A DNA stretch of 64,000 bases from Alphaproteobacteria bacterium (GTDB taxonomy: Bacteria; Pseudomonadota; Alphaproteobacteria; Micavibrionales; UBA2020), in assembly GCA_027483355.1 (NCBI GenBank), contig JAIXUW010000292.1, forward strand, positions 222,226 through 286,225, written 5' to 3'. The notes beneath the pieces were generated by a model that saw only the letters and a list, made by a program, of their open reading frames with translations, was not told the origin of the DNA and searched no databases. The position numbers were made by a program, and so were the translations under genes. Below, piece after piece: positions 8,922-47,453 of the stretch. The first letter of the stretch is position 1. Each line of letters starts with the position of its first letter.

Positions 8922-9044
8922 ATACAAGCCGTCAATTCATCGTGTAAATCTGTGCAATTAAGACCCCCTCATTCTTACCGCAGCCATTGCTTTACTTTCA
9001 CGTGCAAATCCTTGCAATCAGTCAAAAATCACGCGCCAAGTCAC

Positions 9045-11671: not shown

Positions 11672-12286
11672 CTAAGCCTGTCTGAGAAAGTGATCCTTGT
11701 AGACCATTTGCATTTCACCGCCAACGTATCCGTTGCATAGATGCGTGTGACTGTAATACTCAATTCGGTCCATAACAATCTTTGTTGGACGAGTCACGCC
11801 TTCGGGCCGCAAACACACGCCTTCTCCATTTTCGAGAACAAAGTATTTGTTCATTCGAACGCAGAAGAAATCATTGTACTTGACTATATCGTCGAACAAG
11901 ACATCTAAAAAATGCAAGGTGTACACGAACGCGTCCTTGCCGTCCACCTTGCAACGCGAGAGATACCTCTTCTCGTACTCCTCGTCGAGAATAGGCTCGC
12001 CTAATCCTTTAGACGTAACCATATTCTCGCCCTTGCTACGAAAGTAGGCGTAATTGATGCTGTCGTGCGCAAATCGTAGCTCGCGGCGCACCCAAAACTT
12101 GTCCCATACAAGAACCAAGCGCAGTTGCTTGGAATCCAAATTAGGGCCCTTCGAGACGGAACTTGAAGTTGATTTACGCAAAAGATTACCCATGATTGCC
12201 GCGTATGCACTGACGTAAGAAACCAACCCAAAAAAGGCGCGATTCCGTTTAGAAAACCACATGGGCGGATGGGGTGCGGCGAACAT
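11672..12286 (-). CDS. hypothetical protein, tandem paralog (family with 12290..12844)
   Basis: 204-aa ATG ORF. Shares YL....VDGK.A.VY.LH.L..L.DDIV.....F.VR with the upstream gene. Its start lies 3 nt after that gene's stop. Confidence 0.6.
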   Translation of the reverse strand: MFAAPHPPMWFSKRNRAFFGLVSYVSAYAAIMGNLLRKSTSSSVSKGPNLDSKQLRLVLVWDKFWVRRELRFAHDSINYAYFRSKGENMVTSKGLGEPILDEEYEKRYLSRCKVDGKDAFVYTLHFLDVLFDDIVKYNDFFCVRMNKYFVLENGEGVCLRPEGVTRPTKIVMDRIEYYSHTHLCNGYVGGEMQMVYKDHFLRQA

Positions 12287-12289
12287 AAA

Positions 12290-12844
12290 TCAGTTTATAA
12301 CAAAATGATTACGGTAAATCTTTACAGGTTTGTCACGTATCCATCCTTCTTCGAGATACTTGACCTCGTATTCTTGTGCGGTGTCCTCTTCCTCGCAAAA
12401 CTCTTCGGTTACCGAAATCGTGCCGTCGCACAGAACGACGGCCTCGTTGCCATCCGGTAACGAAAACGGAATGTGTGATCTCACATAAAAGTTGTTTTCG
12501 TGCTCCACAATGTCGTCGTACAGCCATTGCAAGTAATGGAGCCTGTACACCATAGCAGGTTTTCCGTCCATTGTGATTGGGAAAAGATACTTTCGAATAT
12601 AGTCCGCCTCGGCAAGATGGGGTTGTGTTTCACTGGGTCCGGGCACTCCATTTCGCACAGTAAATCCGTCGGTCCCGTAGCGCGCAATTGTAGAGTCTGC
12701 GAGCTTAAAATCTGCATTGTAACGGACGTAGAACTTATCTTGGTGATTGACGTAGGACGTATTGCTCCGTGTTCTGAAATCGGCGCAGAACTCGGAAACA
12801 ACAGCAGACTCGGATTCACAGTCGCATATTTCAGTTCGGAGCAT
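12290..12844 (-). CDS. hypothetical protein, tandem paralog (family with 11672..12286)
   Basis: ORF 12290..12898 starts on TTG; first ATG at 12844 (MLRTEICDCE...). KYLFPITMDGKPAMVYRLHYLQWLYDDIVEHENNFYVR aligns to RYLSRCKVDGKDAFVYTLHFLDVLFDDIVKYNDFFCVR. Confidence 0.6.
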   Translation of the reverse strand: MLRTEICDCESESAVVSEFCADFRTRSNTSYVNHQDKFYVRYNADFKLADSTIARYGTDGFTVRNGVPGPSETQPHLAEADYIRKYLFPITMDGKPAMVYRLHYLQWLYDDIVEHENNFYVRSHIPFSLPDGNEAVVLCDGTISVTEEFCEEEDTAQEYEVKYLEEGWIRDKPVKIYRNHFVIN

Positions 12845-14465: not shown

Positions 14466-17400
14466 TTACATTTTACGCATGCGAGTAGTCGCTGTCTTAG
14501 AATTGTAATTACGAGCTCTGGGTGCAGTGGGAGGAGACGGCGGAGGCGTTATTTTGCTTCTCTTTGCGGGCACAGGAGTTCTGCAGCATAACGAATGGAA
14601 TGCGACAGCCACGATTCCGAAACCTGTAATAGCAACAATCACGTATAGAGGAATCAACGCCGTGGGCTGAGCGGGCGGCGTGACGGGCGGCGTCGGAGGT
14701 CCAGTCTGCAATACAATCGTGTGGAATTCTCCCAGTCCGGACAGAAGAATGGAATTTCCGATTTCAGTCGACAATTCTCTGACTGTGACAGGGAATCGAA
14801 CCGATCCACTTGTGTCCGTGTAATCAATGCCATTCACGGCAATGCCGACTTGACCTGAACTATTACGACCCCATGTTTGGATTTCGAACACGGCCTGTGT
14901 CTGACCGGGCTTGTACAATAAAACATGTTCGACTCCGCACCACACGCCGCGAGTGGCAGTCGTATTCGCGACAATTTGAGGCACTGAACTGTATGCCAAT
15001 TCCGCAACTGTTTTGTTCTGACCCAATTGACCGTATTGGTTGGAGCCCCAGGCGTACACGGAAGACGTGTCCTGAGAAATATACAGTCCGTGCGCGCCTC
15101 CTGCGCAAATGTATTGGGTCTGAAGTTGAACGTTGACAGAATCTGGCGGGATACCGAATGCAATCATGGGCGCGTTTCTATTAGGCGACATTTCAGTCGG
15201 ATCGGCCAATTGGCCCCTGTCGTTATTTCCCCACGAGTAGACGACGACAGGGGATCTTTCAGTGACCGCGAACATGAAATCGGAACCGCATGAGATGAGT
15301 CGAATTGACTCGGCTAACATGACTAGTCTGGGCGTTTCCGTGTTGTTATACGACCCGATTCCCAACTGGCCCTTGTCATTCGATCCCCAAGTCCATACCG
15401 CGCCGTCAGTCGACAAAATAGCCGAATAGTTGGCTCCAGCGCACGCTTGTTTGATTTCGAATAATACAGACACGCGCACACGCGAATTGGGAAGAGCCAC
15501 GGCGGCGCGTTCGGTTCTCGGAGCCAGATCCGCGACTCCAAGCTGCCCGAAATCGTTATTACCGTATGTGATTACAAAATCTTCAATCACATTAGGCGGA
15601 TTCTTGGTGACCGTTCTCACGACGGCTACACTGTGCTCCTGACCTCCTGCCAGAAAGTTGATCGCCACATTACGCGTGTTGGAAAACCAAAACTCGATTC
15701 TCTGGCGAATATAATCGAGTTGCGGTGAAATGCGAGGAAGAGGCACGGACACGGTCGTGTTCGACGCCGGGTCAAGCTGAGCGTTTAGGTTTGAACCCCA
15801 TTCGTAGTATCTTTCGCCGGACAGTTTCATAAGATTGTGTTTGTAGCCAACTGCCAGTACTTGCAGGCTTTGAACGGAATTCACGTCGACAAGTTGAATG
15901 AGAGGGTCGATCGAGGACGAGTTGGAGATGACTCTACCCAGTTGACCTAAATCGTTACCACCCCATGAACCGAGATAGTTGCCGTTGACGTTGGGTGGTT
16001 CGATCGGCGGTGGAACAGGCGGCGACACTGGTGCATTTTGAGGAGGCGCGACTGGCGGGGTTTGAGGCGGTGCGACTGGTGGATTCTGGGGAGGCGCGAC
16101 TGGTTGACTTTGAGGCGGAGCGACCGGAGGTGAAACAGGCGGAGCCACTGGCGGCTCTACGGGTGGGGAAACTGGCGGTGCCTGAGGCGGGGCTACTGGT
16201 GGTGACACAGGCGGAGCCACGGGTGGTGCCTGAGGAGGTAAAACCGGAGGCGCGACTGGCGGTTCCACAGGTGGCGAACCTGGAGGAGCTTGTGGTGGTA
16301 ACACAGGAGGGGCGACAGGCGGGGAAACTGGAGGTGCAACAGGCGGGGAAATTGGAGGTGCCTGAGGTGGTAAAACCGGAGGAGCAACTGGCGGCTCTAC
16401 TGGCGGTGCGACAGGGGGAGCCACAGGAGGGGCGACTGGAGGTGACACAGGTGGAGCCACGGGAGGTGCCTGAGGCGGTTCTACAGGCGGAGCCACAGGA
16501 GGCGCTTGAGGAGGCAAAACTGGAGGGGCAACAGGAGGTGTTTGTGGAGGCGAAACTGGTGGAGCGACAGGCGGTGATTGTGGAGGCGAAACCGGAGGCG
16601 CGACAGGCTGCGCTTGAGGCGGTAAAACTGGCGGCGCAACCGGTGGTTCTACAGGCGGTGCCACAGGAGGTGACTGAGGTGGTGAAACCGGGGGCGCGAC
16701 TGGTGGAGCCACTGGAGGTGCTTGAGGTGGTGAAACTGGCGGGGCCACTGGTGGTGCTTGTGGCGGTGAAATCGGTGGAGCTTGAGGAGGCGAAACCGGG
16801 GGCGCAACTGGCGGGGATTGCGGCGGATTCTGGGGAGGCGCGACTGGTGGGGCTAAAGGCGGTGCTACAGGCGGCGAAACCGGAGGCGCAACAGGCGAGG
16901 CGACCGGTGGGGCCACAGGAGGGGCTTGAGGCGGATTTTGCGGAGGAGCCACAGGAGGGGCCTGAGGCGGTGAAACTGGAGGCGCGACTGGCGGTGCAAC
17001 CGGGGGTGCAACTGGAGGTGCCTTGGGCGGAGCGACCGGAGGCGCGACAGGTGCCGCTTGAGGAGCCAAAACCGGAGGTCCAACCGGAGGCGCGACCGGA
17101 GCGGGAGGTAGCACGACCGTTCTAAACCTCCAAACGTCATTATAGTATGTTGTCGGAGTTGTAAACGCGTTCTGCCCGCCTATTAAACCCGTGTTAATAT
17201 TCGAAGGTGAGAAAGGAGATCCTCCGGGCTGTACAAACACTTCGCCGGAAAGTCGCCCGAACGGGAAGTTTAACGCCGAGAACACATTCGGCGCCGGGTA
17301 TGTCCCAAGTGCGTTGCTTGCATTTCCTGCCATCCAAAAAAACTGATCCGAATCATAATCATACGCCCACAGATGCCCGCGGGCGGTTGTTTGGGATTGA

Positions 17401-18449
17401 ACCACCATGTACAACAGGCGCGAATTTGCATTGACCGTGAACATGGCACCGTTTGAATATATTAGCGCAGGATTTCCAAGTGCGTATTGAAGCGTGAAAA
17501 ATTCGGCTGGGCACGGCGCAGCAGCTCCAGCGCCTCCTCCTCCGACCCACGTCCAAATGTTTGTTGCTAAAGTATACAAAAACATGAAACACGAATTTGT
17601 CGTACTTGACGTAGTATACATGGCCAAGTGCGTCGTGTTGTAGGGCGTGTAGGTGCATTGTTTTCGATTACAAGGCAATGCGATTGTTCCTGCGTTCGAA
17701 ACGCGTTTTGTTCCAGCATTTGGAGTCGAAACACCGTCATCTCTCATACATGCGAACAATAAAGTAGAACTGTTGAATCTGTACATGTCCGATCTCAGTG
17801 CACCTCCGGAAGTGGAAGAGCGCCCACCGCTCAGATAAACAATATTATCCAGCGCCGCGGAAACATATCTCATATGGAATACAGCGTATTCGGCTCGTCT
17901 GCCGAATCGAGGAACTCCACAGGAAGGTCCCTGTGTAGTTTGAGTTATAAAAATCCACGTAGGCGACAATAAAGACGTGTCGAGTCTCCACAAATCGCCT
18001 TGGACAGATCCTGCTGAATTATATCCACCATATAAGAATAAAAATCTGTTTTGAAACGTCCAAGCGCCCATGGAGTAACGCGAGCCGATGGAGCTAGGAA
18101 TAGATATCGCGACATTTGTAGCATTACTGCCCGTGACCCAATTCCACGAAGAAGTTGTTGTTTGATATCGAAAAGTGTTAGCGTAAACATTTACACCGTT
18201 CCTGCCGCCCATAATATACACGATAGAATTATTGGGATTTGTGTTGTCCGTAAGCGTCCACAGCGCAAACTCAGACCGCGTAAATGGCGTATTTGGAATC
18301 GCATTCGATGCTCCGCCGCTCAAGTACGCCCATTGTGGTTGAAGCAATGATATTGGCTGCGATACACCAAAGCCGAGAAGCACGGCAACTGAAAAAATCA
18401 CAACCGTTACACATTGGTACACATACCACGCTTTTTTGTGTGTATACAT
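14466..18449 (-). CDS. type-I membrane protein: Kelch-like propeller + (PPV/APP)n stalk + 7-blade RCC1-like propeller + TM anchor
   Basis: ORF 14466..18602 overlaps the stop of the upstream gene; the ATG at 18449 gives a signal-anchor (VTVVIFSVAVLLGFGVS).
- Kelch-like units: VYIMGGRNG...W, LFLYGGYNSAGSVQGDLWRLD, VYLSGGRSS...MYRF.
- About 375 aa of PPVAPPVSPPQAPPVAPP repeats.
- Seven RCC1 signatures: WGGNDLGQLG, WGSNLNAQLD, YGNNDFGQLG, WGSNDKGQLG, WGNNDRGQLA, WGSNQYGQLG, WGRNSSGQVG.
- C-terminal TM segment LIPLYVIVAITGFGIVAVAF plus a basic tail. Confidence 0.8.
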   Translation of the reverse strand: MYTHKKAWYVYQCVTVVIFSVAVLLGFGVSQPISLLQPQWAYLSGGASNAIPNTPFTRSEFALWTLTDNTNPNNSIVYIMGGRNGVNVYANTFRYQTTTSSWNWVTGSNATNVAISIPSSIGSRYSMGAWTFQNRFLFLYGGYNSAGSVQGDLWRLDTSLLSPTWIFITQTTQGPSCGVPRFGRRAEYAVFHMRYVSAALDNIVYLSGGRSSTSGGALRSDMYRFNSSTLLFACMRDDGVSTPNAGTKRVSNAGTIALPCNRKQCTYTPYNTTHLAMYTTSSTTNSCFMFLYTLATNIWTWVGGGGAGAAAPCPAEFFTLQYALGNPALIYSNGAMFTVNANSRLLYMVVQSQTTARGHLWAYDYDSDQFFWMAGNASNALGTYPAPNVFSALNFPFGRLSGEVFVQPGGSPFSPSNINTGLIGGQNAFTTPTTYYNDVWRFRTVVLPPAPVAPPVGPPVLAPQAAPVAPPVAPPKAPPVAPPVAPPVAPPVSPPQAPPVAPPQNPPQAPPVAPPVASPVAPPVSPPVAPPLAPPVAPPQNPPQSPPVAPPVSPPQAPPISPPQAPPVAPPVSPPQAPPVAPPVAPPVSPPQSPPVAPPVEPPVAPPVLPPQAQPVAPPVSPPQSPPVAPPVSPPQTPPVAPPVLPPQAPPVAPPVEPPQAPPVAPPVSPPVAPPVAPPVAPPVEPPVAPPVLPPQAPPISPPVAPPVSPPVAPPVLPPQAPPGSPPVEPPVAPPVLPPQAPPVAPPVSPPVAPPQAPPVSPPVEPPVAPPVSPPVAPPQSQPVAPPQNPPVAPPQTPPVAPPQNAPVSPPVPPPIEPPNVNGNYLGSWGGNDLGQLGRVISNSSSIDPLIQLVDVNSVQSLQVLAVGYKHNLMKLSGERYYEWGSNLNAQLDPASNTTVSVPLPRISPQLDYIRQRIEFWFSNTRNVAINFLAGGQEHSVAVVRTVTKNPPNVIEDFVITYGNNDFGQLGVADLAPRTERAAVALPNSRVRVSVLFEIKQACAGANYSAILSTDGAVWTWGSNDKGQLGIGSYNNTETPRLVMLAESIRLISCGSDFMFAVTERSPVVVYSWGNNDRGQLADPTEMSPNRNAPMIAFGIPPDSVNVQLQTQYICAGGAHGLYISQDTSSVYAWGSNQYGQLGQNKTVAELAYSSVPQIVANTTATRGVWCGVEHVLLYKPGQTQAVFEIQTWGRNSSGQVGIAVNGIDYTDTSGSVRFPVTVRELSTEIGNSILLSGLGEFHTIVLQTGPPTPPVTPPAQPTALIPLYVIVAITGFGIVAVAFHSLCCRTPVPAKRSKITPPPSPPTAPRARNYNSKTATTRMRKM
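15990..17125 (-). repeat. coding 9-bp-periodic proline-rich repeat (PPV/APP/PPQ units)
   Basis: The DNA is a long degenerate GGNGGNNNN-type periodic tract. It keeps the antisense frame open too (spurious 376-aa ORF 15995..17125). Confidence 0.85.
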
Positions 18450-18598
18450 GAATAGTATGTGTTTACTAGTATTATGAAAATATTTTACATGGGTAAAAAC
18501 TAGGCGAAAAATAAGTGTGAACTCGCGCGAGGGGTTGTTCCAAAAATGGAAGGTGTACACACACATACACCCCCCGGGGTGGGCGGGCGCGCACGCTT

Positions 18599-21500
18599 TC
18601 ACTCAACTCGGCGTTTTTTGGATTTGTCGTCTTCATCAGTGCTTGCATCAATTCTCTTCCGCTTGACAATGCGTTGTTCTGGAACAGCGCACATTTGATT
18701 CCAGAATTTAACGCGGTCGGGACCCACTTCGCTACTTTCGTCGAGACACAGCGCCAGTATTCGCAGACAACTATGTACGTCATTTTGAAGTTTTTGCACG
18801 ACCGCGAGCTTGTCGCCAGTGAAGTATTCGGTAAGCCGACTTGATAAAGGTATATCTCCTTTGAGAGGAGTTTCGACCGATTCTTCAACCAACCATTGCA
18901 ACATGTCGACATATTGCTTATTACGGTAGAGTTTGTCTACACAAGCCCTGCAAAATGATTTTACAGGCGCTTTGTCTGTCAATTTATCCAACAGCCTCAT
19001 GTAAACCGGGTTTTGTTGCGACAGCGCGTTGGTCGCCCATTCTCTGACTTGTAGGCATGTCATGTTCAAAACAACATTGAAAAGCGGTTTTGCTTTTGCC
19101 AGTAAGATGATCTTAAGTATAACGTCGTTTCTTGTCCTTCGTATAGTAAAACATTTGTCCATTCCGGAATTGATCCAAAGCCGATGCAACAAGTTATTCG
19201 AGTCATATTCAAATCCAGGCACTATTCGCATCGTTTTTGAGCCAATAGCAACCATGGGATAGGCATCCGCAAAGGCATCGCGCTCCAAATCGTCACTCTG
19301 CCATTGATTCACAGCGGAGCCTATATCCATTGCATATGAGGACAGAGGAAAATGCACAAGAAATCCAAACGCCGCGTCGCAGTATACTGACGGTAGACCC
19401 GATTTCAGCGTGGAATAATCCGAGCCGCGAACATAATTGATTTTCTGTCCTTTGTAGTCTCTTCCTTGTATCTTTGCATAATCAGACAACCCGACGCAAT
19501 ACACACCACAAAGGTATAAGTATTGTTGCAAGGTGTTGAAAAACACCTTTGCGGTCTGGCCGTGCGATGTCATCTCCCATCGATTTTGAAAATAGTCAAT
19601 CTCGGCCGTGATAAGATAACATCGGCGATCGTTTGGGTTGATCAGATTTTTCACCCATCCTTCTTCACTAGACATCTCGTCTTCGTAGTCCGGATAAAAT
19701 TTGTTCCATTCTGAAGAATAAAGTTCAAGTACGCGACAGAAAAAGCCGTTGATGCTACTAAACGAAAGATCAGGGTTTTGGTCTCTATCTTGGGTCCATT
19801 TTCCAAAGTTCAAATTCATCGGGCTAATAAAGGTCTCGACGTAGTTACTTGTTTTGTCTCCCCGAAGCTCTAACAGTAGCAACTGATCACCTGAAGTCTT
19901 GACCCATTGAATCTTTGAAGAATAGCTGCCCAATTCATGCGTGTCGAACAGTGGTATCCCTATAGCGCGTTCAGTTTGATTGAAAAAACGACTCGGCCCT
20001 TGAATGGTTTCCTTGTCCGAATTTTTCAAATCGTTTACGTATTCTCGAGTGTTCACAGGCCCGGCTATGGGGAAGGGCGTTCGGTCAAAAAAGACTCCAT
20101 ACACGCACTGCATAAACGCAGTGGCTTTGAACTCGTCAAATTTGCCGCCGGCGGAGCTCATATCAAGCCTGTAAATTTTTGCGCATATCGAAACGACGGC
20201 GTATCCCATGGCCGCATCGAGAATAATTCGTCCAGTCTCATAACGCGATCGGATCTGCGTTTCGCGTATTTTTGCGTTTCTATAAGTTCTTGAAAAAAAC
20301 GGGTAGGCGCGACGAGCATAGTCGGCAAACTGTGCATTTTCGTCAACGGTAAATTTACGTTCTTCCGGTAGGTTAAACTGTGGGAGTAGTGGAATGTTTG
20401 CCTCGAACATCTGGGGCAAGTCCAGAAACCCGTTGTTGCACGGCTTTCTGTCGTATGTCAGAGCACCCGTCTTAAACAACCGCAGCTGCTTATCGTCCAA
20501 ATGGTAGACTGGAATAAACGTTTTGGCACATTCTACAATTCCGACTTCGTCGGCAAGTTTTGCAAGTACAGGAAGCACGGCATACACGCATATGTTGTTT
20601 GGCCGTACCACAACTGTTTGAAATTCAGACAAACTTTCGATGAGTTCTTCTACCGTATGGCATTTTCTTTCCACTCGGGCGCCGACGGGCACGTAGCTGT
20701 TGCCGGAAAACTGCAACCAGTTAACCAGCACTACCGTTTTTCCATTTTGGTCTTTCTGATAATGGACGCTGAGTATACAAACGACTTTTGGTTCGCGCGC
20801 AACATAAGGCGAAATAATGCTAGCTGTGGGGATGGATCGCCGGCTTTCAAAGGCCAGTTCAAAGCCGAGGAATTGCTGGTTCTTTTCGGGGGCCGCGTGG
20901 TTATAATCCACAAACTTTCCCAGATTGAACAATCGAGTAAACGGTGCATTTCCATTAGCAGAGGCGATTGTCCATTCCAACAAATTTTCGAATGATGGAA
21001 CGCATCCCTGGACCGCCATTTGACGCCACTCAGGCGTGTTAAACGCGTTTGTATCGTCAATCAACATGCTTTGAAAGAGTTTTTGCCCCTTCTCGGACAT
21101 CATATATTCTCCAATGGTCCACGTTCGCGCGTAATCGGGTGAAAACCGCGTAAGCGGCGCCGATCGATCTGAAGGAGCTACGCGTGACATCAAGATCCAA
21201 TGATATTTTCGCAATTCCACGTACTCGTTGTTCTTCAAGTCATCTTTTTGCTTCAAGTCCAAGTATCGAACTGAAAAATCGTTCGATATACAATGCAGTC
21301 TCAAGAGCGTATTGTCCGTGTAAGTCGAAGTTCGAACATAATGCTTGTTGATGAGTTGCAAAGGGATCGCCTTAGAGTGACCAATTCGAACGTTGTCGTC
21401 CAAAACATCGATTTCGCCAAACTCATTTTTTTCCCACGGTCGTTTATCAAAAATTCCATTTGTGGGTTCGAATACAGCAGTGGCTTGTCGTGGCATACCA

Positions 21501-22054
21501 AAGCCTTCATGTGGTCTTGTGACCGAATTATACTTATTTTTTTGCGCAAATTCCGTCAAGATGCGCGTTGCGATCTGACAGATTTTTTGAACTGGAGTGG
21601 TAGCCGCGCCAAGTTGTTCCCCGGGTGCCGTCCACAACGTCTCCAGTCCCAATCGAATTACCTTTTTGCGATCAGGATAGTCTATCATGACAGAGTCAAA
21701 GTTTTTGTATCCGAGACCGTTGTTGTTCGTGTCGTCAGTTGGCAACGGGAATACAAATATAAAGGGACTCTTGTATGCCAAAAGTTTGGGCTCTAAACTG
21801 TCGATAACACGTGCTCGAATCTCTTTGGAGCGTTCAAATTCGTCTACGGGAGCGACAGCTGTCTGCTCCAAAAGCACAATGCGCGCAAAAGATTTTGCTT
21901 CCGGGATCGTGTCGCCGGGCACAAAATGATATTTACTAGTCGGATCGTGACACTTTTCCAGCTCGTCTGATAACATTTCTACGAAGCTGTCGAGAACGCG
22001 CGTCCTGACACTCTCGATGGGATGCAAATAGTCTGCGCAGATCGAAAACGACAT
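18599..22054 (-). CDS. large orphan protein, tandem paralog 1 (1151 aa), C-terminal NLS-like KRKR...KKRR
   Basis: ORF 18599..22108 starts on TTG; first ATG at 22054 (MSFSICADYLHP...). Collinear similarity to the upstream 1311-aa protein: FIFVFPLP/FIFPFPLG, IRLGLETLW/MRIGQETLW, ARTWTIGE/TRTWAVGE, VPSFENLLEW/APSFEMLFTW. No known domain recognised. Confidence 0.75.
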   Translation of the reverse strand: MSFSICADYLHPIESVRTRVLDSFVEMLSDELEKCHDPTSKYHFVPGDTIPEAKSFARIVLLEQTAVAPVDEFERSKEIRARVIDSLEPKLLAYKSPFIFVFPLPTDDTNNNGLGYKNFDSVMIDYPDRKKVIRLGLETLWTAPGEQLGAATTPVQKICQIATRILTEFAQKNKYNSVTRPHEGFGMPRQATAVFEPTNGIFDKRPWEKNEFGEIDVLDDNVRIGHSKAIPLQLINKHYVRTSTYTDNTLLRLHCISNDFSVRYLDLKQKDDLKNNEYVELRKYHWILMSRVAPSDRSAPLTRFSPDYARTWTIGEYMMSEKGQKLFQSMLIDDTNAFNTPEWRQMAVQGCVPSFENLLEWTIASANGNAPFTRLFNLGKFVDYNHAAPEKNQQFLGFELAFESRRSIPTASIISPYVAREPKVVCILSVHYQKDQNGKTVVLVNWLQFSGNSYVPVGARVERKCHTVEELIESLSEFQTVVVRPNNICVYAVLPVLAKLADEVGIVECAKTFIPVYHLDDKQLRLFKTGALTYDRKPCNNGFLDLPQMFEANIPLLPQFNLPEERKFTVDENAQFADYARRAYPFFSRTYRNAKIRETQIRSRYETGRIILDAAMGYAVVSICAKIYRLDMSSAGGKFDEFKATAFMQCVYGVFFDRTPFPIAGPVNTREYVNDLKNSDKETIQGPSRFFNQTERAIGIPLFDTHELGSYSSKIQWVKTSGDQLLLLELRGDKTSNYVETFISPMNLNFGKWTQDRDQNPDLSFSSINGFFCRVLELYSSEWNKFYPDYEDEMSSEEGWVKNLINPNDRRCYLITAEIDYFQNRWEMTSHGQTAKVFFNTLQQYLYLCGVYCVGLSDYAKIQGRDYKGQKINYVRGSDYSTLKSGLPSVYCDAAFGFLVHFPLSSYAMDIGSAVNQWQSDDLERDAFADAYPMVAIGSKTMRIVPGFEYDSNNLLHRLWINSGMDKCFTIRRTRNDVILKIILLAKAKPLFNVVLNMTCLQVREWATNALSQQNPVYMRLLDKLTDKAPVKSFCRACVDKLYRNKQYVDMLQWLVEESVETPLKGDIPLSSRLTEYFTGDKLAVVQKLQNDVHSCLRILALCLDESSEVGPDRVKFWNQMCAVPEQRIVKRKRIDASTDEDDKSKKRRVE

Positions 22055-22104
22055 TTTAGAGCGTTTGAGAAAACCTTTATATACATGAAGAAAACATATT
22101 TTTT

Positions 22105-25100
22105 TCAAAGCGGGCGGGTCTGGCGCAAAGGTTTTATTTGCGAAGATGAAGAAGAAGTCTTATTCTTGTTCTGTAGCATTTGTGCGTAAGATGTGAAGAG
22201 AGGGTTTTGGCTTGCTACCTGCTGTACACTGATGTTTGCAATGTTTGGACGTCTTGGCGCCGGGCGCGAGGAAACGTTTGTGTCGGACTGCCTGCTGACG
22301 CGATTTTGCACCGCGCTCCTCTCACTGGCCCTCGTGTACGGCACACGGTTTGGAATAGCAGCGTCAACATCCATTGCGTCGTCGGTATCGACACGGTTTG
22401 GAATAACAGCGTCGACGTCCATTGCGTCGTTGGTGCCAGTCTCCGCGAGGCGAGGGGAACTCGACGACAGGGCACGAAGAGAAGGACGATTGGTAATTGG
22501 TGGCTTTGGTAAGACCGCATTACTATCGTCTGAAGTGTTTCGTCTTGGCCTCTTTGCTTCCGGTGTCGCGTTTTCCTCGACGTTTTTCAGCAAAAGTATT
22601 CTTTCTTTTCTGGCCGGCGCAAGCTGTGGTAAAAATTTGGCCTTGCGGCTCCATTTCCTCGACGATCTAGTGTGTGTCTGGTTTTGCGCGGCCCATATGC
22701 TCAATTGCACACCACGTAGTTTAAACCAGGTTTGCGTCAATGCGTCCGACAGTTCAGATGAAAACCCCGATTCCGGGTCGGGTCTCTCTAAAAACGCCAT
22801 CCGAATAAACTCCTGTTCAAAATCAGTTATCCCACCAAGCGAGAATGCTGTTCTATCTTTCTTGGTCAAGAGATGCGAAAGCACCCATTCGACGCTTTCG
22901 TAGACTTCGCTGTCTTCATAGAGAGTTTCCAATGCGTATCGAAACGCATTAGTGTTGTTTTGATCGTCGGGGATGTCATACAACACGTCGATTAATTCGT
23001 TTGCATTCGACCCCTTTGGATATCTATAATCTGAATTCTTGTTAGATCGAAGAACCTCTTCGGAATTCCTGACGTATTCTTTCAGCTCTCCAATCGATAC
23101 GTTGAAACAAGCATTGATTGCCTTTCTAAAATTCAACATGAGTCGCATCCATACTTGAAATCTCGCGTTGACAACGTCCAAACTGAAAATGGCATTTTCA
23201 ATCGAAGAAACGCGGTCTTTGTTGTTGTCGTTGCCGGATTGTTTGATTTTTTCATCGCGATACCACTGTAGAACAGCCGGAAAGGTATCTTTTAGCTGCC
23301 CAGGTTCAAACGTCGTGTTCGCAATTTGCGACATTTCCTGGCCAGGACGAGGCCCGAATAGAGCCAAAAACCCAAACTTTGGCATGCTGTACAACGACGG
23401 CACAATTTCTTTAAACATTGCGTATGTGGCGCCATCAATGTAAAAGTGCCGGAAATATTTGTCTGTCCCGGAAATTCCCGAAGCGTCTTCAAGCATGAAG
23501 ACAAAGGCTCTGCTCACGTAACTTAATTGAGTGAGCAGTATGACCAAATATTCGGCTCTTAATCCGACGGCGTTCAATTCCCAACGACCCTGGAGTAATT
23601 GTAGTTCCGATGTCATCAAGGCGACATCTGTAGGTTTCATTGGATCATTGTTTTCCAAAACTGTTGTTCTGTTTCGTGTCAAGACAAACTCAAATCCGTT
23701 GACAAAAGGGTACACGAGGTCGGGGTCTTGATTGTAATTCTCGCTGGGTTCATCTTCGTCAGAAGACGTAGATATCGATCGCAGTAGACTTTTGCCATAA
23801 TTTGCGCAAGCAAGACGAACGGAAACTTTTGCATTAAACTTGGATCGCACTTCCCTCAATTTCACCAGCGCTAATTTTTTTCCAGCAAATGCCATCCAAG
23901 CAAATTTCTTTGTCTCATACTTTGCTTTCATTCGTTTGACATCGAAGTGATTGTCAAATCGATACTGCGCCTTGATTCCTAAACTAAGCTCGCGCTCGTA
24001 GACATATCTGGCCACAGAGTCCACCGCCACATTCGGATCCCAGTTAGAAAATGGTGTTTTGTCTTCTTGTCCGCCGCTGGCAAACTTTACTCCATTACCT
24101 CCCCTGTCTACGCCCATAGAGGGACCAAACATGGATGCCAGGACGGCGTATCTTCGACGCTCAATGTCACCCAGGTCTCTGCCGACCGTTTCAAATAGGT
24201 AGAAGGCACTACGTCTGGGATCTGTTCGAAACCCGGGAAGTTTGTCGTATACAAGACTCTTTGTAGGATCTTTTTTCGTGCGCTCAAGCAACGCTTTCCC
24301 AATGTAGGCTTGATAGTTTTCAAAGTCCGCCAGCGTGCCATTCTCGGCTTCTTCTTTTGACAATGTCTCGCGCTTGGAGAAAAGAGATTTTCCGAGGGCG
24401 TGAAGTGAGGCAACGTTCATAAATGCCTGGTCCTGGTACTCTGTCTGTGTTTCAAAGCTTTTACGCTGCATTGTAGACAGATGCGATACCGGGACGAAAA
24501 CTTTATAGATGGCTTGCTGCAATCCTACTCTGGCGTCCAATAACAATTGCACTCCCGAGACGCACATGTCAGCATCTTTCCACGCCTCGTCCTCAGTAAC
24601 AATCCATTCTAAAAACGATTCCATATTAGGCCAATCGTGTGGCACACGAGGTTTTCCCAGCTCGTCCACGTAACATTGTAAAGAAATCGCGTCTCTGGGC
24701 TTGGAATAGGTAACCACAATCGCTTTTCTCACATGGCTACGGCACTCCGTGTAATACTTGTCATCGACGCCTTCTGACTCAATAAGCTCTTGCGCGAGCG
24801 TAATGTCCGATCTACGTTGCAGATAAATGACAAACCCTGCTAACGAACGCGAATTGCGTATTTCAGCAAATCTTTGCGCTATAGGATCCTTCAAATCCAC
24901 ATGTATAGGAATCCCGCTAGCGCTGCACATGAGCCAAGTGAATAGCATTTCAAACGATGGTGCCACCCCTTGAGATGCTTGAATTCGATACTCTTCTGAA
25001 TTCAAACAAGATGGTCGGGTGCCCGCCAGCATGCGCTGAAATTCCGAGCGTATATTTGCATTTTCCAAAAGACCTTCACCCACTGCCCACGTACGAGTAA

Positions 25101-26040
25101 AGTCGATGCAATTCATCTTTCTGTACTCGTAAGATATTCGCTTCCTTGGCATGTTTTTCTTTTTTGGCTTGAACAACGTCTGGCGATTCATTAGAACCCA
25201 TGAAAGTTCCGCGCGTTCGTAGTAGGCTTCGTTGTCAAACTCTTCACGCGTGTCATTGTGATACTCCAACGTCGTCGTCCTAAAGTCCGATCCGATGAGA
25301 TAAAACACGACTCCGCTTCGGCCTCTGGATTCTTTGACAATTGATTGCGCGATTTCATGTCGTCTGACTAGATCCATCGGAACTGTACGCTCTTGTTCTA
25401 TTCGTTTCTCATCCCATCGAACGTTTACTTGATCATTTCGCAGCCTTTCAGCGTAACGTTTTCTGAGCGGCTTTTCTGTATAAGAACCGGACACGGCCTG
25501 AAAGGTCTTGTCGCCTAGAGGTCGAGTCAAGCCCGGGTTTTGTTCAACATACGGAGTTAACATTGTATGCAGCACCCTTGCCACTTGCTCAGCGGGAGTG
25601 GTGTCTTTCCAACTCGCCTCGGAACCAGATCGCCACAGCGTCTCCTGCCCGATTCTCATCACTCTGTCCTCGTCTTCGAAATTCACGATGATAGCTGGCA
25701 AGTTTTGGTACGAGTCGACGCGTTCTCCGAGAGGAAAAGGGAATATGAACACGTATTTCCCTTTATGCCGCTGAACCTGATTCTTGTGCAGATTTACAAA
25801 TAGAGCGCTTAGCTCGACTTCGTCTTGAGGCATTTTGGCAGGATAGAACAAGTCTAGGTCTACGAGAACGACCGTGGCTGCAGGAGCGTCCGAGCGGATG
25901 ACAAATTCGAACATCCGAGGCTCGTCGGGGTCCAGAATATTGACCAGTTGTTCATTTGCGTATTTAGTGAACAGTTTTAACGTAGGAGGTCTGCGAGCAG
26001 GGTCCACGCAGACATAGTCGACGACAACGTCGGCGTACAT
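22105..26040 (-). CDS. large orphan protein, tandem paralog 2 (1311 aa) with repeat/Ser-rich C-terminal extension
   Basis: ORF 22105..26058 starts on TTG; first ATG at 26040 (MYADVVVDYVCVD...). Paralogous to 18599..22054. The C-terminal ~200 aa are low-complexity and include the duplicated DAMDVDA(V/A)IPNRV. Confidence 0.75.
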   Translation of the reverse strand: MYADVVVDYVCVDPARRPPTLKLFTKYANEQLVNILDPDEPRMFEFVIRSDAPAATVVLVDLDLFYPAKMPQDEVELSALFVNLHKNQVQRHKGKYVFIFPFPLGERVDSYQNLPAIIVNFEDEDRVMRIGQETLWRSGSEASWKDTTPAEQVARVLHTMLTPYVEQNPGLTRPLGDKTFQAVSGSYTEKPLRKRYAERLRNDQVNVRWDEKRIEQERTVPMDLVRRHEIAQSIVKESRGRSGVVFYLIGSDFRTTTLEYHNDTREEFDNEAYYERAELSWVLMNRQTLFKPKKKNMPRKRISYEYRKMNCIDFTRTWAVGEGLLENANIRSEFQRMLAGTRPSCLNSEEYRIQASQGVAPSFEMLFTWLMCSASGIPIHVDLKDPIAQRFAEIRNSRSLAGFVIYLQRRSDITLAQELIESEGVDDKYYTECRSHVRKAIVVTYSKPRDAISLQCYVDELGKPRVPHDWPNMESFLEWIVTEDEAWKDADMCVSGVQLLLDARVGLQQAIYKVFVPVSHLSTMQRKSFETQTEYQDQAFMNVASLHALGKSLFSKRETLSKEEAENGTLADFENYQAYIGKALLERTKKDPTKSLVYDKLPGFRTDPRRSAFYLFETVGRDLGDIERRRYAVLASMFGPSMGVDRGGNGVKFASGGQEDKTPFSNWDPNVAVDSVARYVYERELSLGIKAQYRFDNHFDVKRMKAKYETKKFAWMAFAGKKLALVKLREVRSKFNAKVSVRLACANYGKSLLRSISTSSDEDEPSENYNQDPDLVYPFVNGFEFVLTRNRTTVLENNDPMKPTDVALMTSELQLLQGRWELNAVGLRAEYLVILLTQLSYVSRAFVFMLEDASGISGTDKYFRHFYIDGATYAMFKEIVPSLYSMPKFGFLALFGPRPGQEMSQIANTTFEPGQLKDTFPAVLQWYRDEKIKQSGNDNNKDRVSSIENAIFSLDVVNARFQVWMRLMLNFRKAINACFNVSIGELKEYVRNSEEVLRSNKNSDYRYPKGSNANELIDVLYDIPDDQNNTNAFRYALETLYEDSEVYESVEWVLSHLLTKKDRTAFSLGGITDFEQEFIRMAFLERPDPESGFSSELSDALTQTWFKLRGVQLSIWAAQNQTHTRSSRKWSRKAKFLPQLAPARKERILLLKNVEENATPEAKRPRRNTSDDSNAVLPKPPITNRPSLRALSSSSPRLAETGTNDAMDVDAVIPNRVDTDDAMDVDAAIPNRVPYTRASERSAVQNRVSRQSDTNVSSRPAPRRPNIANISVQQVASQNPLFTSYAQMLQNKNKTSSSSSQIKPLRQTRPL
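22343..22438 (-). repeat. 2 x 48-bp tandem repeat inside CDS
   Basis: acacggtttggaatagcagcgtcaacatccattgcgtcgtcggtatcg is followed by acacggtttggaataacagcgtcgacgtccattgcgtcgttggtgcc. It encodes the duplicated ...DAMDVDA(V/A)IPNRV motif. Confidence 0.8.
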
Positions 26041-26138
26041 TTCTGGGTATTTTTTCAAACCAAAAAGCCCTTAGTTGTCTCTACGCTAGTGCTTTTCCTT
26101 TCTGAGCCGCGAGAATGCACATTTTTATTATTTACAAG

Positions 26139-27776
26139 TCACGACCGCGCGTATTTTGCCCATTTCTCGATAGGCGTTCTTAGATGAGTGTCAAACAGTT
26201 TTTCATCCAATCTAACCTCGCTTTGCGTGTCGTTTTCGTGCGCCAGATCAGCGCAGCATCGCTTTTGCGCTTGAACTGCAATCTTGTGCAAGTCTTCGAT
26301 ATCCGTAGTCATGCTATGATCCTTTGTGTATGGACATGTGGGAATAAACTGATCTACCACGGTCTCATCCAAAGATTGTTTGATCAGAAAAGAACACGAA
26401 GGCATGGTAGACCTTTCCGGTTTTCTATAGTGCTTGAAATGCGCATCGAATTCAACCCATCTCTGATTAGGCAACGCATTGTACTCGGAGACATTCAAAA
26501 CTCCATTTTGCGCCAAATACGCCATGCCGGGCTCTAAGGCGGGCGCGATTCTGTCCGGCAATGCTCGAGCCAAGAAATGAGCCAAAAATTGACGTCTCGG
26601 ATGCTTGAAATCCTTAAAATCCTGCAAATACTGCGTGACGCATTTCGGGTAGACTGGAGGACGAGCGCCCAGCGATGCCAATTTGGCGCGAACGGCCAGC
26701 TGTCTCTCCTTAGCAGCATTCAGATTGTCGGAAGAATATGCCAGCAACTGGGGCGCGTTTGGGGCAAGTGCTCCCAGCCCAAGAAAGGTGCGCCAGCCTG
26801 CGTTCAGAACGTCAAGGCTTACCAAAGTCGCCGTGACTCTCGGACTCGTACCCTTTAACGTGTATACAGGGTCTAAAATAGTATGATGAAATCGGGGCAC
26901 GTTAATGAACGCTCGAGGATGCTGTTGAACGAGCGCCATTCCGCCTGGCATTTTACCGCTCCAAAACAATCGCAGAATCTTCCACGTGTTCAAGGCTACG
27001 AGTCCCGTGTTGAAAGACAGACTGAACGTTCGTTCTGTGTCCGTTTGAAGTTCTGGCTCGCTTACAATTTTTAACCGCGACTCTTGGCTGCTTGAAAGAC
27101 GCATAAAACTGCCTTCCTTGTCCATACTTCCAAAGAATCGGTGGCTGTCATTCGAGTAACTGGATTTCGACTGCGATTTTGCTGTTTCCTCCACCACTTT
27201 GCTAAATTCTTGTTGTTTTTGAGCTCCGAGCATAGATTTCCACGTTTCTATAATAGTAGACGATGTTTTGGACGAAGGCAAGCTGGCTCGGCGCAGCAAA
27301 TGCTCTTGGAGACTTTGAAGCGGCCCGCGTTCCGTTATCTCGTCGTAAACGCAAGAAACGAATAGGGGCAAGAATTCGAACAAGACTCGACTTATAAATC
27401 TCATGATATTATACATTTGAGTTGACGCCTTGAGGGCAAAAGCCAAATCAATGTCCATTTTCGGCGCCAGCGCCCTTCCATGATCCGGCAGAGAGAATTC
27501 TAACAAAGGCAACTCATTTGTGGAATCACGCGTGATCAAATTCCAAAGATCCGTGCCTTCGTAGCGCCGCGGACATGTTTTGACTTCGGCCAGAAGGTAC
27601 GCCGCGAAATCGTAAATGAAAGAGGCGTTGTTAATGTCGTGTAGAGGAACAGCGCATATGATAAACCACGTAACGCGGTCCAGATTCCACGCTCCCTCTT
27701 TCAGAACGCCCGCGAGGCCGGAATAGAAACTTTCAAACTCTGTTACTAAGCAGTTGTAGAAATACACTGCCGACAT
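26139..27776 (-). CDS. hypothetical protein (545 aa)
   Basis: Long ATG-initiated ORF (MSAVYFYNCLVTEFESFY...), co-oriented with the two giant paralogs. No motif recognised. Confidence 0.7.
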   Translation of the reverse strand: MSAVYFYNCLVTEFESFYSGLAGVLKEGAWNLDRVTWFIICAVPLHDINNASFIYDFAAYLLAEVKTCPRRYEGTDLWNLITRDSTNELPLLEFSLPDHGRALAPKMDIDLAFALKASTQMYNIMRFISRVLFEFLPLFVSCVYDEITERGPLQSLQEHLLRRASLPSSKTSSTIIETWKSMLGAQKQQEFSKVVEETAKSQSKSSYSNDSHRFFGSMDKEGSFMRLSSSQESRLKIVSEPELQTDTERTFSLSFNTGLVALNTWKILRLFWSGKMPGGMALVQQHPRAFINVPRFHHTILDPVYTLKGTSPRVTATLVSLDVLNAGWRTFLGLGALAPNAPQLLAYSSDNLNAAKERQLAVRAKLASLGARPPVYPKCVTQYLQDFKDFKHPRRQFLAHFLARALPDRIAPALEPGMAYLAQNGVLNVSEYNALPNQRWVEFDAHFKHYRKPERSTMPSCSFLIKQSLDETVVDQFIPTCPYTKDHSMTTDIEDLHKIAVQAQKRCCADLAHENDTQSEVRLDEKLFDTHLRTPIEKWAKYARS

Positions 27777-28545: not shown

Positions 28546-30585
28546 ATGCCGAATAGACAAAAGAAGCCGCATTACAATTGGCCTGTACCTAGCAAGGGCT
28601 CTTTGGAAGAGTTTCAAAACGGGTTTTCAAAGCAAGTTTATGATACCAGGTTCTTCCTTTTAAAGAGACCCGTGGCGTGTATCACGGCGGCTGCTGTCAA
28701 ATTGATTACGAGGCTCAATGTCCGAATTGTCAACGCGGACTCTGTTGATCTTCCGGTGCCAGAACAAGGAGCATCACAGCCCGTTATTTTCAACGAGGAC
28801 ACTCAGCCTATTCCTTCCTCACCCGTCGAATCTGCGGTTCAAAGCTTGAATTTTGAGGATTTTACTCAGAATGCCGAATCACAGCCGCCTTTTGAACCGA
28901 TGCCAGAGCTCGAGCCCGAGCCCGAGCAGGAGCCGGAGCCCGAACCTGAGTACACTCCCACGCACTCTTCAAGTGTCGCGAAGACCAAGCGCCGAGCTTC
29001 AGCGCTGCCAGTTCGCGATTTTCAACGAGAAGAGAAATCGGTTGCTAAATTGTGTGAGAAATACGACACTGTGGCGGAGCTACTTGGCGCTGGCCACAGT
29101 CGCCAAGAGTTCTTACTCTCTTCTCTTCAAACGGCGCCGTATTTACTGATCTTTGTTGTCACAAACGATTTGACCAACATTATCTTCTTTGGCGAGTACG
29201 AAATCGATTCTGGATTCTACTTGTCGGCTGACGTTTTCGGTCGCTGCTGGCTCCGCGTGACGGATCTACGCAAGTACAACGCAATCGTATTGAATGAGTT
29301 ATCTTGGCCTGTGAAAACTGGCTACTATTATCTGGGTACACGCCTGAATGGTAAGGGCCTGTTTATCGGACCTCGAGCTGTTCGATTTCAATCTCTCGGC
29401 ATGTCTGGCGGTGGATTTTCTGGCCGTCGTCCTTATTCCATGCAGTATTCCGAGATCGCGCCCGAATGCTTCAGGCCTGCATTAGGCGAGGTCGTATTCC
29501 AATTCGATCAGATGAAAGACGTCATCGTCTCGTCTGCCAGATGCGGGATATTGAATTTGGCACAACGCGGCGATGTATTCAGCGACGTGATGACTGGTCG
29601 CAAAGTGGACGAATTCCTGACGTCGACTCATGCTGAAGTTGACATGATGACATCAAATCGCTCATTGGCACACGCCGCAGGTCAATTGGACATTTCTGCA
29701 TTTATGCTATGGCAGTGTATTCCTCTTCACGCTTACGACAAGCCGTTTGCTTCTCTTGACAAGCTAGACGCAGCGTCTCTTTGGTTTTTCAAGAAGACAA
29801 TGGCTCGAACTGCCGACTTTCTGAAAAGGGGAAAGTTCTCCGAATCTTTCTTCATGCCATCATGTGTCAGGCAGAGCATCAGAGAAATGTCATTGTTCCG
29901 CGCTCCAATCGCATCGCCGGTGCGGGAGACTTCTATGGTCAACGAGATTTGGGCTAACTTGAAAATCATGGCATATGGGGACATTGAGCTCGCACCCTTG
30001 CTCTGGATTTTGAAAGACAAGCCCTTGAATTTGTCCAAGATGTGGTATGTCAAGTGGCCGTCTGCCATCGCAAGGGCGTGCCTCTTTCCTGCCGATATGA
30101 TTGCCTTGGAGGCTCGATTGAAGCAATATGCCTTGTCAGACTCTCGACTGGCACCTATTTTGTTCTACTGCGCTTTCTTAGTCTACAAATGGGCGGTTTC
30201 TGTCAACGTATTTAGTCCACTTTCCAGATTGTGCTTGCTCAATTGCATCGCGCAACTTGGCGAGATTGCTGGACTAGGGTGCATTTTCGAGGAAGCGCCT
30301 GCCGATGTCGCTCAATTACGCGACCAATGCGCCAAGAATTTGCTCAAAGTCGACGAGTGGAAACTGGTCTCTGTCGTCGCTACTTACTATTTGCATATTT
30401 TGCTTCGCAAGGTCGATCGGTCTGTCATTGAGGAAAATGGATTTTTCAGCGTCGACGAAAAGATGCACATTTCGTTAATGACGATTGACGAGACTCTCTT
30501 CTATCTGGCCAATTTGTCACCCGAATTTATAGCTGTCGAGGACAGTACATTGGAGTCGCCGGCGAAAAGAAGAAAGATTCATTGA
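28546..30585 (+). CDS. hypothetical protein (679 aa) with acidic PE-repeat and C-terminal KRRK
   Basis: ORF 28513..30585 starts on GTG; ATG at 28546 (MPNRQKKPHYNW...). Contains PELEPEPEQEPEPEPE and ends SPAKRRKIH. No catalytic motif recognised. Confidence 0.7.
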   Translation: MPNRQKKPHYNWPVPSKGSLEEFQNGFSKQVYDTRFFLLKRPVACITAAAVKLITRLNVRIVNADSVDLPVPEQGASQPVIFNEDTQPIPSSPVESAVQSLNFEDFTQNAESQPPFEPMPELEPEPEQEPEPEPEYTPTHSSSVAKTKRRASALPVRDFQREEKSVAKLCEKYDTVAELLGAGHSRQEFLLSSLQTAPYLLIFVVTNDLTNIIFFGEYEIDSGFYLSADVFGRCWLRVTDLRKYNAIVLNELSWPVKTGYYYLGTRLNGKGLFIGPRAVRFQSLGMSGGGFSGRRPYSMQYSEIAPECFRPALGEVVFQFDQMKDVIVSSARCGILNLAQRGDVFSDVMTGRKVDEFLTSTHAEVDMMTSNRSLAHAAGQLDISAFMLWQCIPLHAYDKPFASLDKLDAASLWFFKKTMARTADFLKRGKFSESFFMPSCVRQSIREMSLFRAPIASPVRETSMVNEIWANLKIMAYGDIELAPLLWILKDKPLNLSKMWYVKWPSAIARACLFPADMIALEARLKQYALSDSRLAPILFYCAFLVYKWAVSVNVFSPLSRLCLLNCIAQLGEIAGLGCIFEEAPADVAQLRDQCAKNLLKVDEWKLVSVVATYYLHILLRKVDRSVIEENGFFSVDEKMHISLMTIDETLFYLANLSPEFIAVEDSTLESPAKRRKIH

Positions 30586-47350: not shown

Positions 47351-47376
47351 CAATAAACTCTTATGTGCTCGAAAAT

Positions 47377-47448
47377 GCCGGCGTGGTTCAATTGGTAGAA
47401 TACCTGGTTGTGGCTCAGGCGACGATGGTTCGATTCCACCCGCTGGCA
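47377..47448 (+). tRNA. tRNA-His (anticodon GTG)
   Basis: Manual cloverleaf:
- acceptor gccggcg/cgctggc (one G-U)
- D arm gttc-aattggta-gaat
- anticodon arm cctgg-ttGTGgc-tcagg
- 4-nt variable region
- T arm gatgg-ttcgatt-ccacc (one A-C mismatch, B-box GGTTCGATTCC)
- discriminator A
There is no encoded G-1 or CCA, which is the eukaryote style. Confidence 0.7.
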
Positions 47449-47453
47449 TTGCG

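Follow-up and report, generated by a model that had tools for sequence, protein, structure and literature searches.

The stretch analysed here covers 64,000 nucleotides (nt) of contig JAIXUW010000292.1 (positions 222,226 to 286,225; assembly GCA_027483355.1, deposited as an alphaproteobacterium) and is referred to below as the window. It carries two adjacent giant genes, P1 and P2, which are a lineage-specific tandem duplicate of one gene of about 1,200 codons and not an anciently kept pair. This big gene holds a fixed slot in a conserved gene block, and the block recurs in a group of large DNA genomes, dense in genes and of eukaryote type, that are probably viruses; this group is very small and has been sampled only sparsely. 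Its products form a new protein family; on sequence comparison it is robustly an orphan family, without detectable relationship to any described family. As to function, our reading is tentative and stands at slightly less than an even chance: the protein would be a nucleus-imported, non-catalytic viral factor (virion-associated, tegument-like, or acting in assembly or at the host interface), diversifying under host pressure and duplicated with asymmetric divergence.

The gene pair and its relatives

Both genes are intact and co-oriented, and they lie 50 nt apart. The features of the pair, as read from the open reading frames (ORFs), their translations and the sequence, are as follows, in the order of transcription.

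22105-26040, minus strand: P2, the upstream copy, 1311 amino acids (aa) plus stop, ATG start
22055-22104, minus strand: 50-nt spacer between the P2 stop and the P1 ATG, with an A-run directly after the stop
18599-22054, minus strand: P1, the downstream copy, 1151 aa plus stop, ATG start

The original prediction, made by eye from the same sequence, had described two giant ORFs that are collinear paralogs, and this description stands. BLASTP aligns P1 and P2 with E=6e-47 at 21% identity over about 1,050 residues, and all the peptide pairs that had been quoted fall at matching positions; in a five-protein alignment the two are 25% identical on 977 gap-free columns. A third copy was not found within the window by tblastn. 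The two genes have no similarity to each other at the DNA level, and therefore no recent gene conversion has taken place between them.

Relatives of the pair are very few. An HMMER profile search of 1.84 billion representative proteins returned P2 itself and three others only (4 clusters), which bears out the orphan status that had been proposed. These are P0002 (1230 aa), P0003 (1238 aa) and P0004 (1203 aa), all of which can be aligned with P1 and P2 from end to end; the three are encoded on two marine metagenome contigs. An identical copy of the P2 protein occurs in public data on an NCBI contig of 292,368 bp, the Logan variant P0005 is the sole one known at an identity of at least 90%, and the family is saturated at about 20% identity. 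P0002 is encoded on a 32-kb Logan contig (L002). P0003 and P0004 are encoded by adjacent, co-oriented genes on a 208,454-bp ENA metagenome contig (ERZ7462356 NODE_8; L001, with extensions L004, L006 and L008). Proteins of the 208-kb contig also occur in a Logan assembly of ERR3589585 and in Tara Oceans data, and this relative is therefore marine.

The absence of any recognisable domain was likewise borne out. The five family members have no match in Pfam even at E<=10, and PHROGs, NCBIfam and sequence-profile searches of all PDB chains (E<=10) gave nothing. No match came from pattern scans of IMG/VR, JGI metagenomes and GTDB genomes for the big family and for two of its conserved neighbours, and IMG/VR gave 0 matches in all four conserved-protein scans. 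For the neighbouring families, PDB profiles produced chance-level matches only. Domains shared between the big gene and its three conserved neighbours were considered and rejected, as the hhalign probabilities were below 1%. A word-indexed protein search, run with P1 and with the five-sequence alignment, found nothing and missed the family's own members too. This negative is uninformative and was given no weight, because such a search scores only the candidates with the highest number of shared words and the representative of the 90% cluster of P1 is a fragment of 43 aa.

A fixed slot in a conserved gene block

The block around the big gene has the same order in all three genomes: an S8 peptidase gene, a gene of 662/664/670 aa, a gene of 679/630/690 aa on the opposite strand, a gene of 545/549/541 aa, the big gene or genes, and a gene for a Kelch/Pro-repeat/RCC1 protein. 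A gene of 471/477 aa closes the block in the window and in L001, where the contig reaches that far. In both relatives, and not in the window, the 630/690-aa gene is separated from the 549/541-aa gene by a GT61-like gene of about 790 aa. At the slot itself, L001 has two adjacent big genes, and L002 has exactly one, between the 549-aa gene and the Kelch gene. The main neighbours in the window are given below.

32769-34493, minus strand: S8 peptidase (584-aa ORF), identified with Pfam
28546-30585, plus strand: 679-aa neighbour, which interrupts the minus-strand run
26139-27776, minus strand: conserved 545-aa orphan gene, the upstream anchor, 44-45% identical to the 541-aa (L001) and 549-aa (L002) genes
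14466-18566, minus strand: Kelch/(PPVAPP)n/RCC1 membrane protein, the downstream anchor, from its translation and from Pfam RCC1 and Kelch matches; homologous genes lie in L001 and L002

The minus-strand run of the window reads S8 peptidase, 662 aa, 111 aa, 545 aa, P2, P1, the 1366-aa Kelch/RCC1 protein, and a 471-aa secreted Cys-rich protein. The original prediction had the pair heading a co-oriented run, which is the reverse of the actual order because the strand had been missed: the genes lie on the minus strand with the 1311-aa copy upstream, and the pair is inside the run. The neighbours had also been taken for orphans. This is correct for the 545-aa gene, but the 584-aa ORF is an S8 peptidase and a 1378-aa ORF has Kelch and RCC1 domains.

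Some further observations concern this block and the longer relative. The 1366-aa membrane protein starts with a Kelch-type region, which is followed by repeats of the PPVAPP/PPVSPP type over about 330 residues and by an RCC1 propeller; a membrane anchor lies at its C-terminus. The repeats of its gene (about 16027-17039) show periodicities of 12, 24, 36 and 108 nt, with a local GC content of up to 58% and a GC skew of +0.23. In about 50 kb of the 208-kb relative (about 155.6-206.2 kb of the record), Pfam matches three genes only (RCC1, S8 peptidase and PP2C), which is an unusually low rate of annotation, and directly past the part of this contig that was read there is a gene for more than 2,039 aa.

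Duplication and divergence of the copies

The two genes had been described as kept as a divergent pair, and this does not agree with what is found at the slot: L002 has a single copy there, and the two window copies group together. In a neighbour-joining tree of the five sequences (977 gap-free columns, 1,000 bootstraps), P1 and P2 are joined with 100% support and P0003 and P0004 with 63%. The bit scores are 171 for P1-P2, 840 for P0003-P0004, 754 for P0002-P0004 and 674 for P0002-P0003, and 44-97 across the two groups. Because the copies group by genome and L002 has only one, the simplest history is that one ancestral gene was duplicated independently in two lineages. An ancient pair that was homogenised by gene conversion and then lost one copy in L002 needs more events and is the less simple account.

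After the duplication the two copies did not diverge to the same extent. P2 is 15.8-16.5% identical to the outgroup homologs and P1 is 18.4-18.5% identical; P2 is the farther from the outgroups, and the divergence is therefore asymmetric. The identities between the window and its relatives are as follows for the genes of the block.

545-aa gene: 44-45%
662-aa gene: 43-44%
471-aa gene: 39%
679/690-aa gene: 22-25%
big gene family: 15.8-18.5%

By these identities the big family diverges about twice as fast as most of its neighbours. One of the alternatives in the original prediction, a rapidly evolving pair, fits here, with 15.8-18.5% identity against 39-45% for three neighbours. The window also holds a second tandem pair of orphan paralogs, at 11672-12286 (204 aa) and 12290-12844 (184 aa) on the minus strand, which are 31% identical (E=6e-16). 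Tandem duplication is thus common in this genome.

The sequences upstream of the two genes give a different picture from the one first proposed, in which both 5' leaders shared a TTGAAAAAAWA element.

26041-26138, minus strand: intergenic region upstream of P2, with an AATAAA-like sequence past the stop of the 545-aa gene

The element matches upstream of the 1311-aa gene only. TTGAAAAAATA, at 26048-26058 upstream of P2, is the single exact match within the region of the pair. The 9-mer TTGAAAAAA is found 7 times in the window, where 2.7 occurrences are expected, and just two of the 7 sites are 5' of genes. The TTGAAAAAA that seems to lie upstream of P1 consists of the TGA stop codon of P2 and the A-run behind it. 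The spacer between P2 and P1 contains TATATAAA at 22076-22083, 22-29 nt ahead of the P1 ATG. TTGAAAAAAWA is absent upstream of the three homologs in the related genomes. On this distribution of sites, the element proposed for both leaders is not supported as a specific regulatory motif.

Conserved segments, tails and predicted structure

Conservation within the family is concentrated in two places. In the sliding-window comparison, only two segments are clearly conserved between the groups.

20945-21136, minus strand: conserved block A, P1 residues 307-370, with a between-clade conservation peak of 29-30% identity
19322-19675, minus strand: conserved block B, P1 residues 794-911, the best conserved part of the family

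Block A has the motifs TW-G and E-W/Y-R...A-Q...P-[SG]-[FL]-E-x-L, and its invariant residues (P1 numbering) are T311, W312, G315, E342, A347, Q349, P353, E356 and L358. Block B is the only part matched in distant homologs by profile search, the best stretch of P0002-P0004 being profile positions 882-979, and its invariant residues are Q823, W826, D858, D866, G877, Y880, K884 and Y891. Across the five members (P1, P2 and P0002-P0004), 51 columns are invariant, including D8, D220, R223, H238, R291, E342, E356, K511, D858, D866 and K884. None of the invariant columns is a Cys that could serve a zinc motif.

The C-terminal tails of the five family members are acidic or rich in Ser, and each bears a basic cluster that resembles a nuclear localization signal (NLS). 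The features of the tails in the window are the following, the first two read from the sequence and the third found with TRF.

18602-18664, minus strand: bipartite NLS-like sequence at the C-terminus of P1 (KRKR, an 11-residue acidic spacer, KKRR)
22540-22554, minus strand: basic cluster KRPRR in the low-complexity tail of P2
22343-22434, minus strand: 48-nt tandem duplication in the P2 tail (period 48, 1.9 copies, 90% matches)

The last 21 residues of the 1151-aa P1 are the NLS-like KRKRIDASTDEDDKSKKRRVE, as had been noticed, and this putative signal, KRKR-x11-KKRR, fits the textbook bipartite NLS pattern. The repeat-containing Ser-rich tail reported for P2 is also present: it extends over about 200 residues of low complexity, with much Ser, Thr and Pro. 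A repeat search finds its duplication as two 44-nt copies 48 nt apart that are 91% identical, encoding two 16-residue units that contain DAMDVDA[VA]IPNRV. Besides that of P1, the clusters in the family are KRPRR, KRPKLE, PRKRTHRK and KRQKK, so that all members show an importin-alpha-type NLS pattern, monopartite K(K/R)x(K/R) or bipartite KR-x10-12-basic cluster, as a sequence pattern only. No signal peptide or membrane segment was seen in the big-gene proteins.

Such clusters are frequent in the window as a whole. At least four Lys or Arg residues per five occur in 19 of the 47 proteins (7.9 expected), and in 11 proteins the clusters lie at most 40 residues from a terminus (2.7 expected among the 47 genes). 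KRRKI, KRVKL and KKRKV-type motifs are found at protein ends across the window; in the 679/690-aa family, a C-terminal KRRKI is invariant in 3/3 genomes.

Structure prediction gives limited information. The full-length AlphaFold2 model of P1, built on the five-sequence alignment, has a mean pLDDT (predicted local distance difference test) of 35 and is unusable for fold comparison, including comparison with the HK97 floor domain. One part was modelled somewhat better from the same alignment.

21500-22054, minus strand: N-terminal alpha/beta domain of P1, residues 1-185, mean pLDDT 58, predicted template modelling score (pTM) 0.59

Its predicted order is beta-alpha-beta-beta-alpha-beta, followed by three short strands and a helix, and the invariant Asp8 lies at the end of predicted strand 1. 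A Foldseek search of this domain against PDB and BFVD gave no match at E<=1e-3, and all template modelling (TM) scores were below 0.4; the top matches, flavodoxin-like folds such as lumazine synthase, are generic and non-significant and were not interpreted. For block B, a low-confidence prediction suggests the order helix-helix-strand-strand-strand-helix-strand. A PD-(D/E)xK nuclease, with its D ... (D/E)xK triad in an alpha-beta-beta-beta-alpha-beta core, was considered for this block and rejected: while D858 and D866 do not vary, P1 alone has the x-K that follows D866, and the fold pattern comes from the low-confidence model. The original prediction had named a confident profile or structure match to a known family as evidence against it. 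Profile searches gave none, and the two models are too weak to classify.

Nature of the genome

The window consists to 85% of uninterrupted ORFs on both strands, with a GC content of 47.5%. Its domains include ankyrin, Sina-type RING, dual-specificity phosphatase, a divergent kinase, S8 peptidase, Kelch/RCC1 and DUF285; they are mostly eukaryote-derived, of a type typical of large protist viruses. There is one tRNA-His(GTG) gene at 47376-47449 on the plus strand, confirmed by Rfam. Four bases past it, at 47454-47530 on the plus strand, ARAGORN finds a tRNA-like sequence with an 8-base anticodon loop, which is not called by Rfam.

With regard to expression signals, the context around start codons is A-rich, and AWTAAA occurs within 80 nt past the stop in 8 of 47 genes against a background of 3.6%, about a 5-fold enrichment. 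A/T homopolymers of at least 6 are about 4-fold enriched in intergenic DNA, within 100 nt upstream of genes. A strong TATA-box signature was not found (4 of 47 genes against a background of 3.7%), TATAWA being barely enriched upstream, and no clear promoter motif was defined in the intergenic regions of the window.

Several other proteins of the window are worth recording. F-box-like N-termini ("LP..i...If..l") are seen by eye in the orphans at 2578-3426, 3449-4348, 6616-7689, 34609-35832 and 60867-62240. The adjacent genes of 282 and 299 aa among these have only this N-terminal motif in common (E=4e-4), and both products end in KR.KL. The 1809-aa protein at 55295-60724 on the plus strand is N-terminally anchored and NxS/T-rich, with repeated "...LNPAGSNV.F.SKN..." modules that also occur in a 954-aa protein of L001 (19252-22116; E=1e-11), which makes it a candidate fibre or envelope glycoprotein. 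A small P-loop protein at 8952-9635 on the plus strand has the Walker A motif GPTGSGKT and no packaging-ATPase family match. By this motif, its ORF is probably the one behind the generic AAA_16/AAA_22 matches of the whole-set scan.

Taken together, the genome is probably a large DNA virus or a virus-like episome with a nuclear phase. Neither the window nor the stretch of about 50 kb covered in the 208-kb relative showed a capsid, packaging or polymerase hallmark. The hallmarks of Nucleocytoviricota (double jelly-roll major capsid protein, A32 ATPase, VLTF3) were not seen there either, and those of Mirusviricota (HK97 major capsid protein, triplex, portal, terminase, PolB, split large subunit of RNA polymerase) were not detected in the sequence covered. 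Because of this, the viral nature is no more than probable. AurliV-1 is an unlikely match, because it is reported to be intron-dense (PMC12768974), unlike the uninterrupted ORFs of the window.

Possible roles of the protein

The reading introduced at the outset, to which we give a little under an even chance, can be put as a sequence of steps. The proteins would be soluble, of mixed alpha/beta structure in front and helical in the last third. A classical NLS in the disordered C-terminal tail would carry them into the host nucleus, as may be the case for many proteins of this genome. There they would have a non-catalytic role as a virion-associated, tegument-like or assembly factor, or as a host-interface factor, and their surface would be under host-driven diversification. 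A tandem duplication followed by unequal divergence would then have given the present pair.

Several points weigh against this. Function is deduced from rate, copy number and targeting signals alone. The fixed length, the full-length collinearity and the roughly 50 invariant columns fit an enzyme or a capsid-type protein equally well. Both structure models (pLDDT 35 and 58) are too poor to exclude a known fold. The 679/690-aa neighbour, at 22-25% identity, is equally divergent, and therefore fast evolution is not special to the big gene. Gene conversion could mimic independent duplication, and no viral hallmark gene was seen in the 64-kb window or in the roughly 50 kb of the relative.

It is unlikely, in our view, that the proteins are instead highly diverged enzymes or DNA-binding proteins that replicate or process the genome in the nucleus, for example a nuclease, something like a primase, or a single-stranded DNA-binding protein of the ICP8 kind. 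Such a protein would fill a function that is otherwise without a recognisable gene in this virus group. Acidic, basic and His residues that do not vary among the members are found along the entire protein. The predicted N-terminal domain has its invariant Asp at the end of strand 1 and, in most members, acidic residues after predicted strand 4, and the low-confidence fold predicted for block B would contain the invariant D858, D866 and K884. However, no enzyme or DNA-binding profile matched even at E<=10, the (D/E)xK is not conserved after D866, there is no invariant Cys, and no P-loop was seen on reading. Divergence at about twice the rate of the neighbours, together with a variable copy number, would also be unusual for core replication enzymes.

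The size range of herpes-type major capsid proteins takes in 1,150-1,310 aa. A major structural protein assembled in the nucleus, either a capsid protein of herpesvirus or mirusvirus size or a capsid-associated scaffold, is suggested by length, by the position in a conserved block beside secreted and membrane glycoprotein-like genes, and by the putative nuclear import signals. We consider it improbable, since no PDB chain, herpesvirus capsid proteins included, was matched by profile, and only three relatives were found in 1.84 billion proteins though public data contain many capsid proteins of mirusviruses and herpesviruses. Moreover, the family evolves faster than its neighbours and varies in copy number, unlike capsid genes, and the Rossmann-like N-terminal domain predicted at low confidence would not be an HK97 element.

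Thraustochytrid-associated large DNA viruses are reported to form persistent circular episomes, whose maintenance mechanism is stated to be unclear (10.64898/2026.07.28.741200). There is a slim chance that the big gene serves to maintain or tether such a viral genome in the nucleus, in the manner of LANA or EBNA1. Nuclear targeting signals, large size, rapid evolution and repeat-bearing tails would all suit a persistent episomal virus, and the reported episomes count in its favour. But the window is no more than a candidate member of the thraustochytrid-associated viruses, the proteins are mostly globular in appearance and not repeat-dominated, and no DNA-binding domain was detected with Pfam or PDB profiles. 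Finally, an anciently retained pair working as a heterodimeric two-subunit machine, which corresponds to the core machinery of the original prediction, is very improbable: two adjacent co-oriented copies do occupy the same position in two genomes, only 50 nt apart in the window, but one relative has a single copy at the slot and the copies group by genome rather than by position (171 bits within the window against 44-97 to the positional counterparts).

Significance and comparison with known systems

If the favoured reading of a nucleus-imported, non-catalytic factor is true, the pair illustrates a way in which big genes specific to one lineage arise and diversify in large eukaryotic DNA viruses: the gene of a fixed-position, fast-evolving nuclear protein underwent independent duplications in two lineages, and its copies then diverged to unequal degrees. 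A duplicated, rapidly diverging orphan gene is nevertheless a familiar phenomenon in such viruses, where orphan paralogs are the norm, and by itself the big family opens no long-standing question. The family would also mark a group of marine viruses that is seldom sampled and in which almost none of the conserved genes can be annotated, and it could be used, with the 545-aa and 662-aa genes, as a probe for further members. We see a small chance that it is more than this, namely a new fold or an enzyme essential for nuclear replication or genome maintenance, and the signature gene of a new orphan-rich lineage without a recognisable hallmark in about 115 kb.

Two orphan-rich, nucleus-dependent groups of marine thraustochytrid viruses are candidates for the lineage. 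The "Skiavirales/Ariadnavirales" have genomes of 190-252 kb without DNA and RNA polymerases, and the Soporavirales mirusviruses are circular episomes of 275-298 kb (10.64898/2026.07.28.741200; 10.64898/2026.08.29.747986; PMC10827195). Like these groups, the genomes considered here (292 kb and at least 208 kb) are marine, have a GC content of about 47%, show signs of a nuclear phase, and carry S8 peptidase, divergent kinase, ankyrin and glycosyltransferase genes. On the other side, no gene that is a hallmark of one or the other group was seen in the roughly 64 + 50 kb covered, and none of the four conserved-protein scans gave an IMG/VR match.

Among single proteins, the HK97 capsid proteins of herpesviruses and mirusviruses are similar in size class, in their context of nuclear assembly and in lying within a conserved block of virus-specific genes; they differ in evolutionary pattern, and there is no sequence or profile similarity. 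The herpesvirus major DNA-binding protein ICP8/UL29 (Pfam Viral_DNA_bp) is a nuclear protein of about 1,200 aa with an NLS at its C-terminal end. The big-gene protein is similar in length and would have a C-terminal helical region followed by a disordered tail with an NLS-like signal, and this likeness is taken as a lead only. In contrast to ICP8, it has no Viral_DNA_bp or PDB match at E<=10 and no invariant Cys, and it diverges much faster and varies in copy number.

Tandemly duplicated orphan families are well known from large eukaryotic DNA viruses, for example the multigene families of African swine fever virus, the "gene accordions" of poxviruses and the tandem duplicates of pandoraviruses. 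The big gene differs from typical expanded viral families in the unusual size of its proteins (about 1,200 aa) and in having one or two copies instead of a large array; it is also collinear over its full length and fixed in gene-order position in 3/3 genomes, unlike families that are more dispensable. What it has in common with them is the tandem, co-oriented arrangement of the copies, a variable copy number, faster divergence than the neighbouring genes and the lack of homologs outside the group, together with another tandem pair within the same window.

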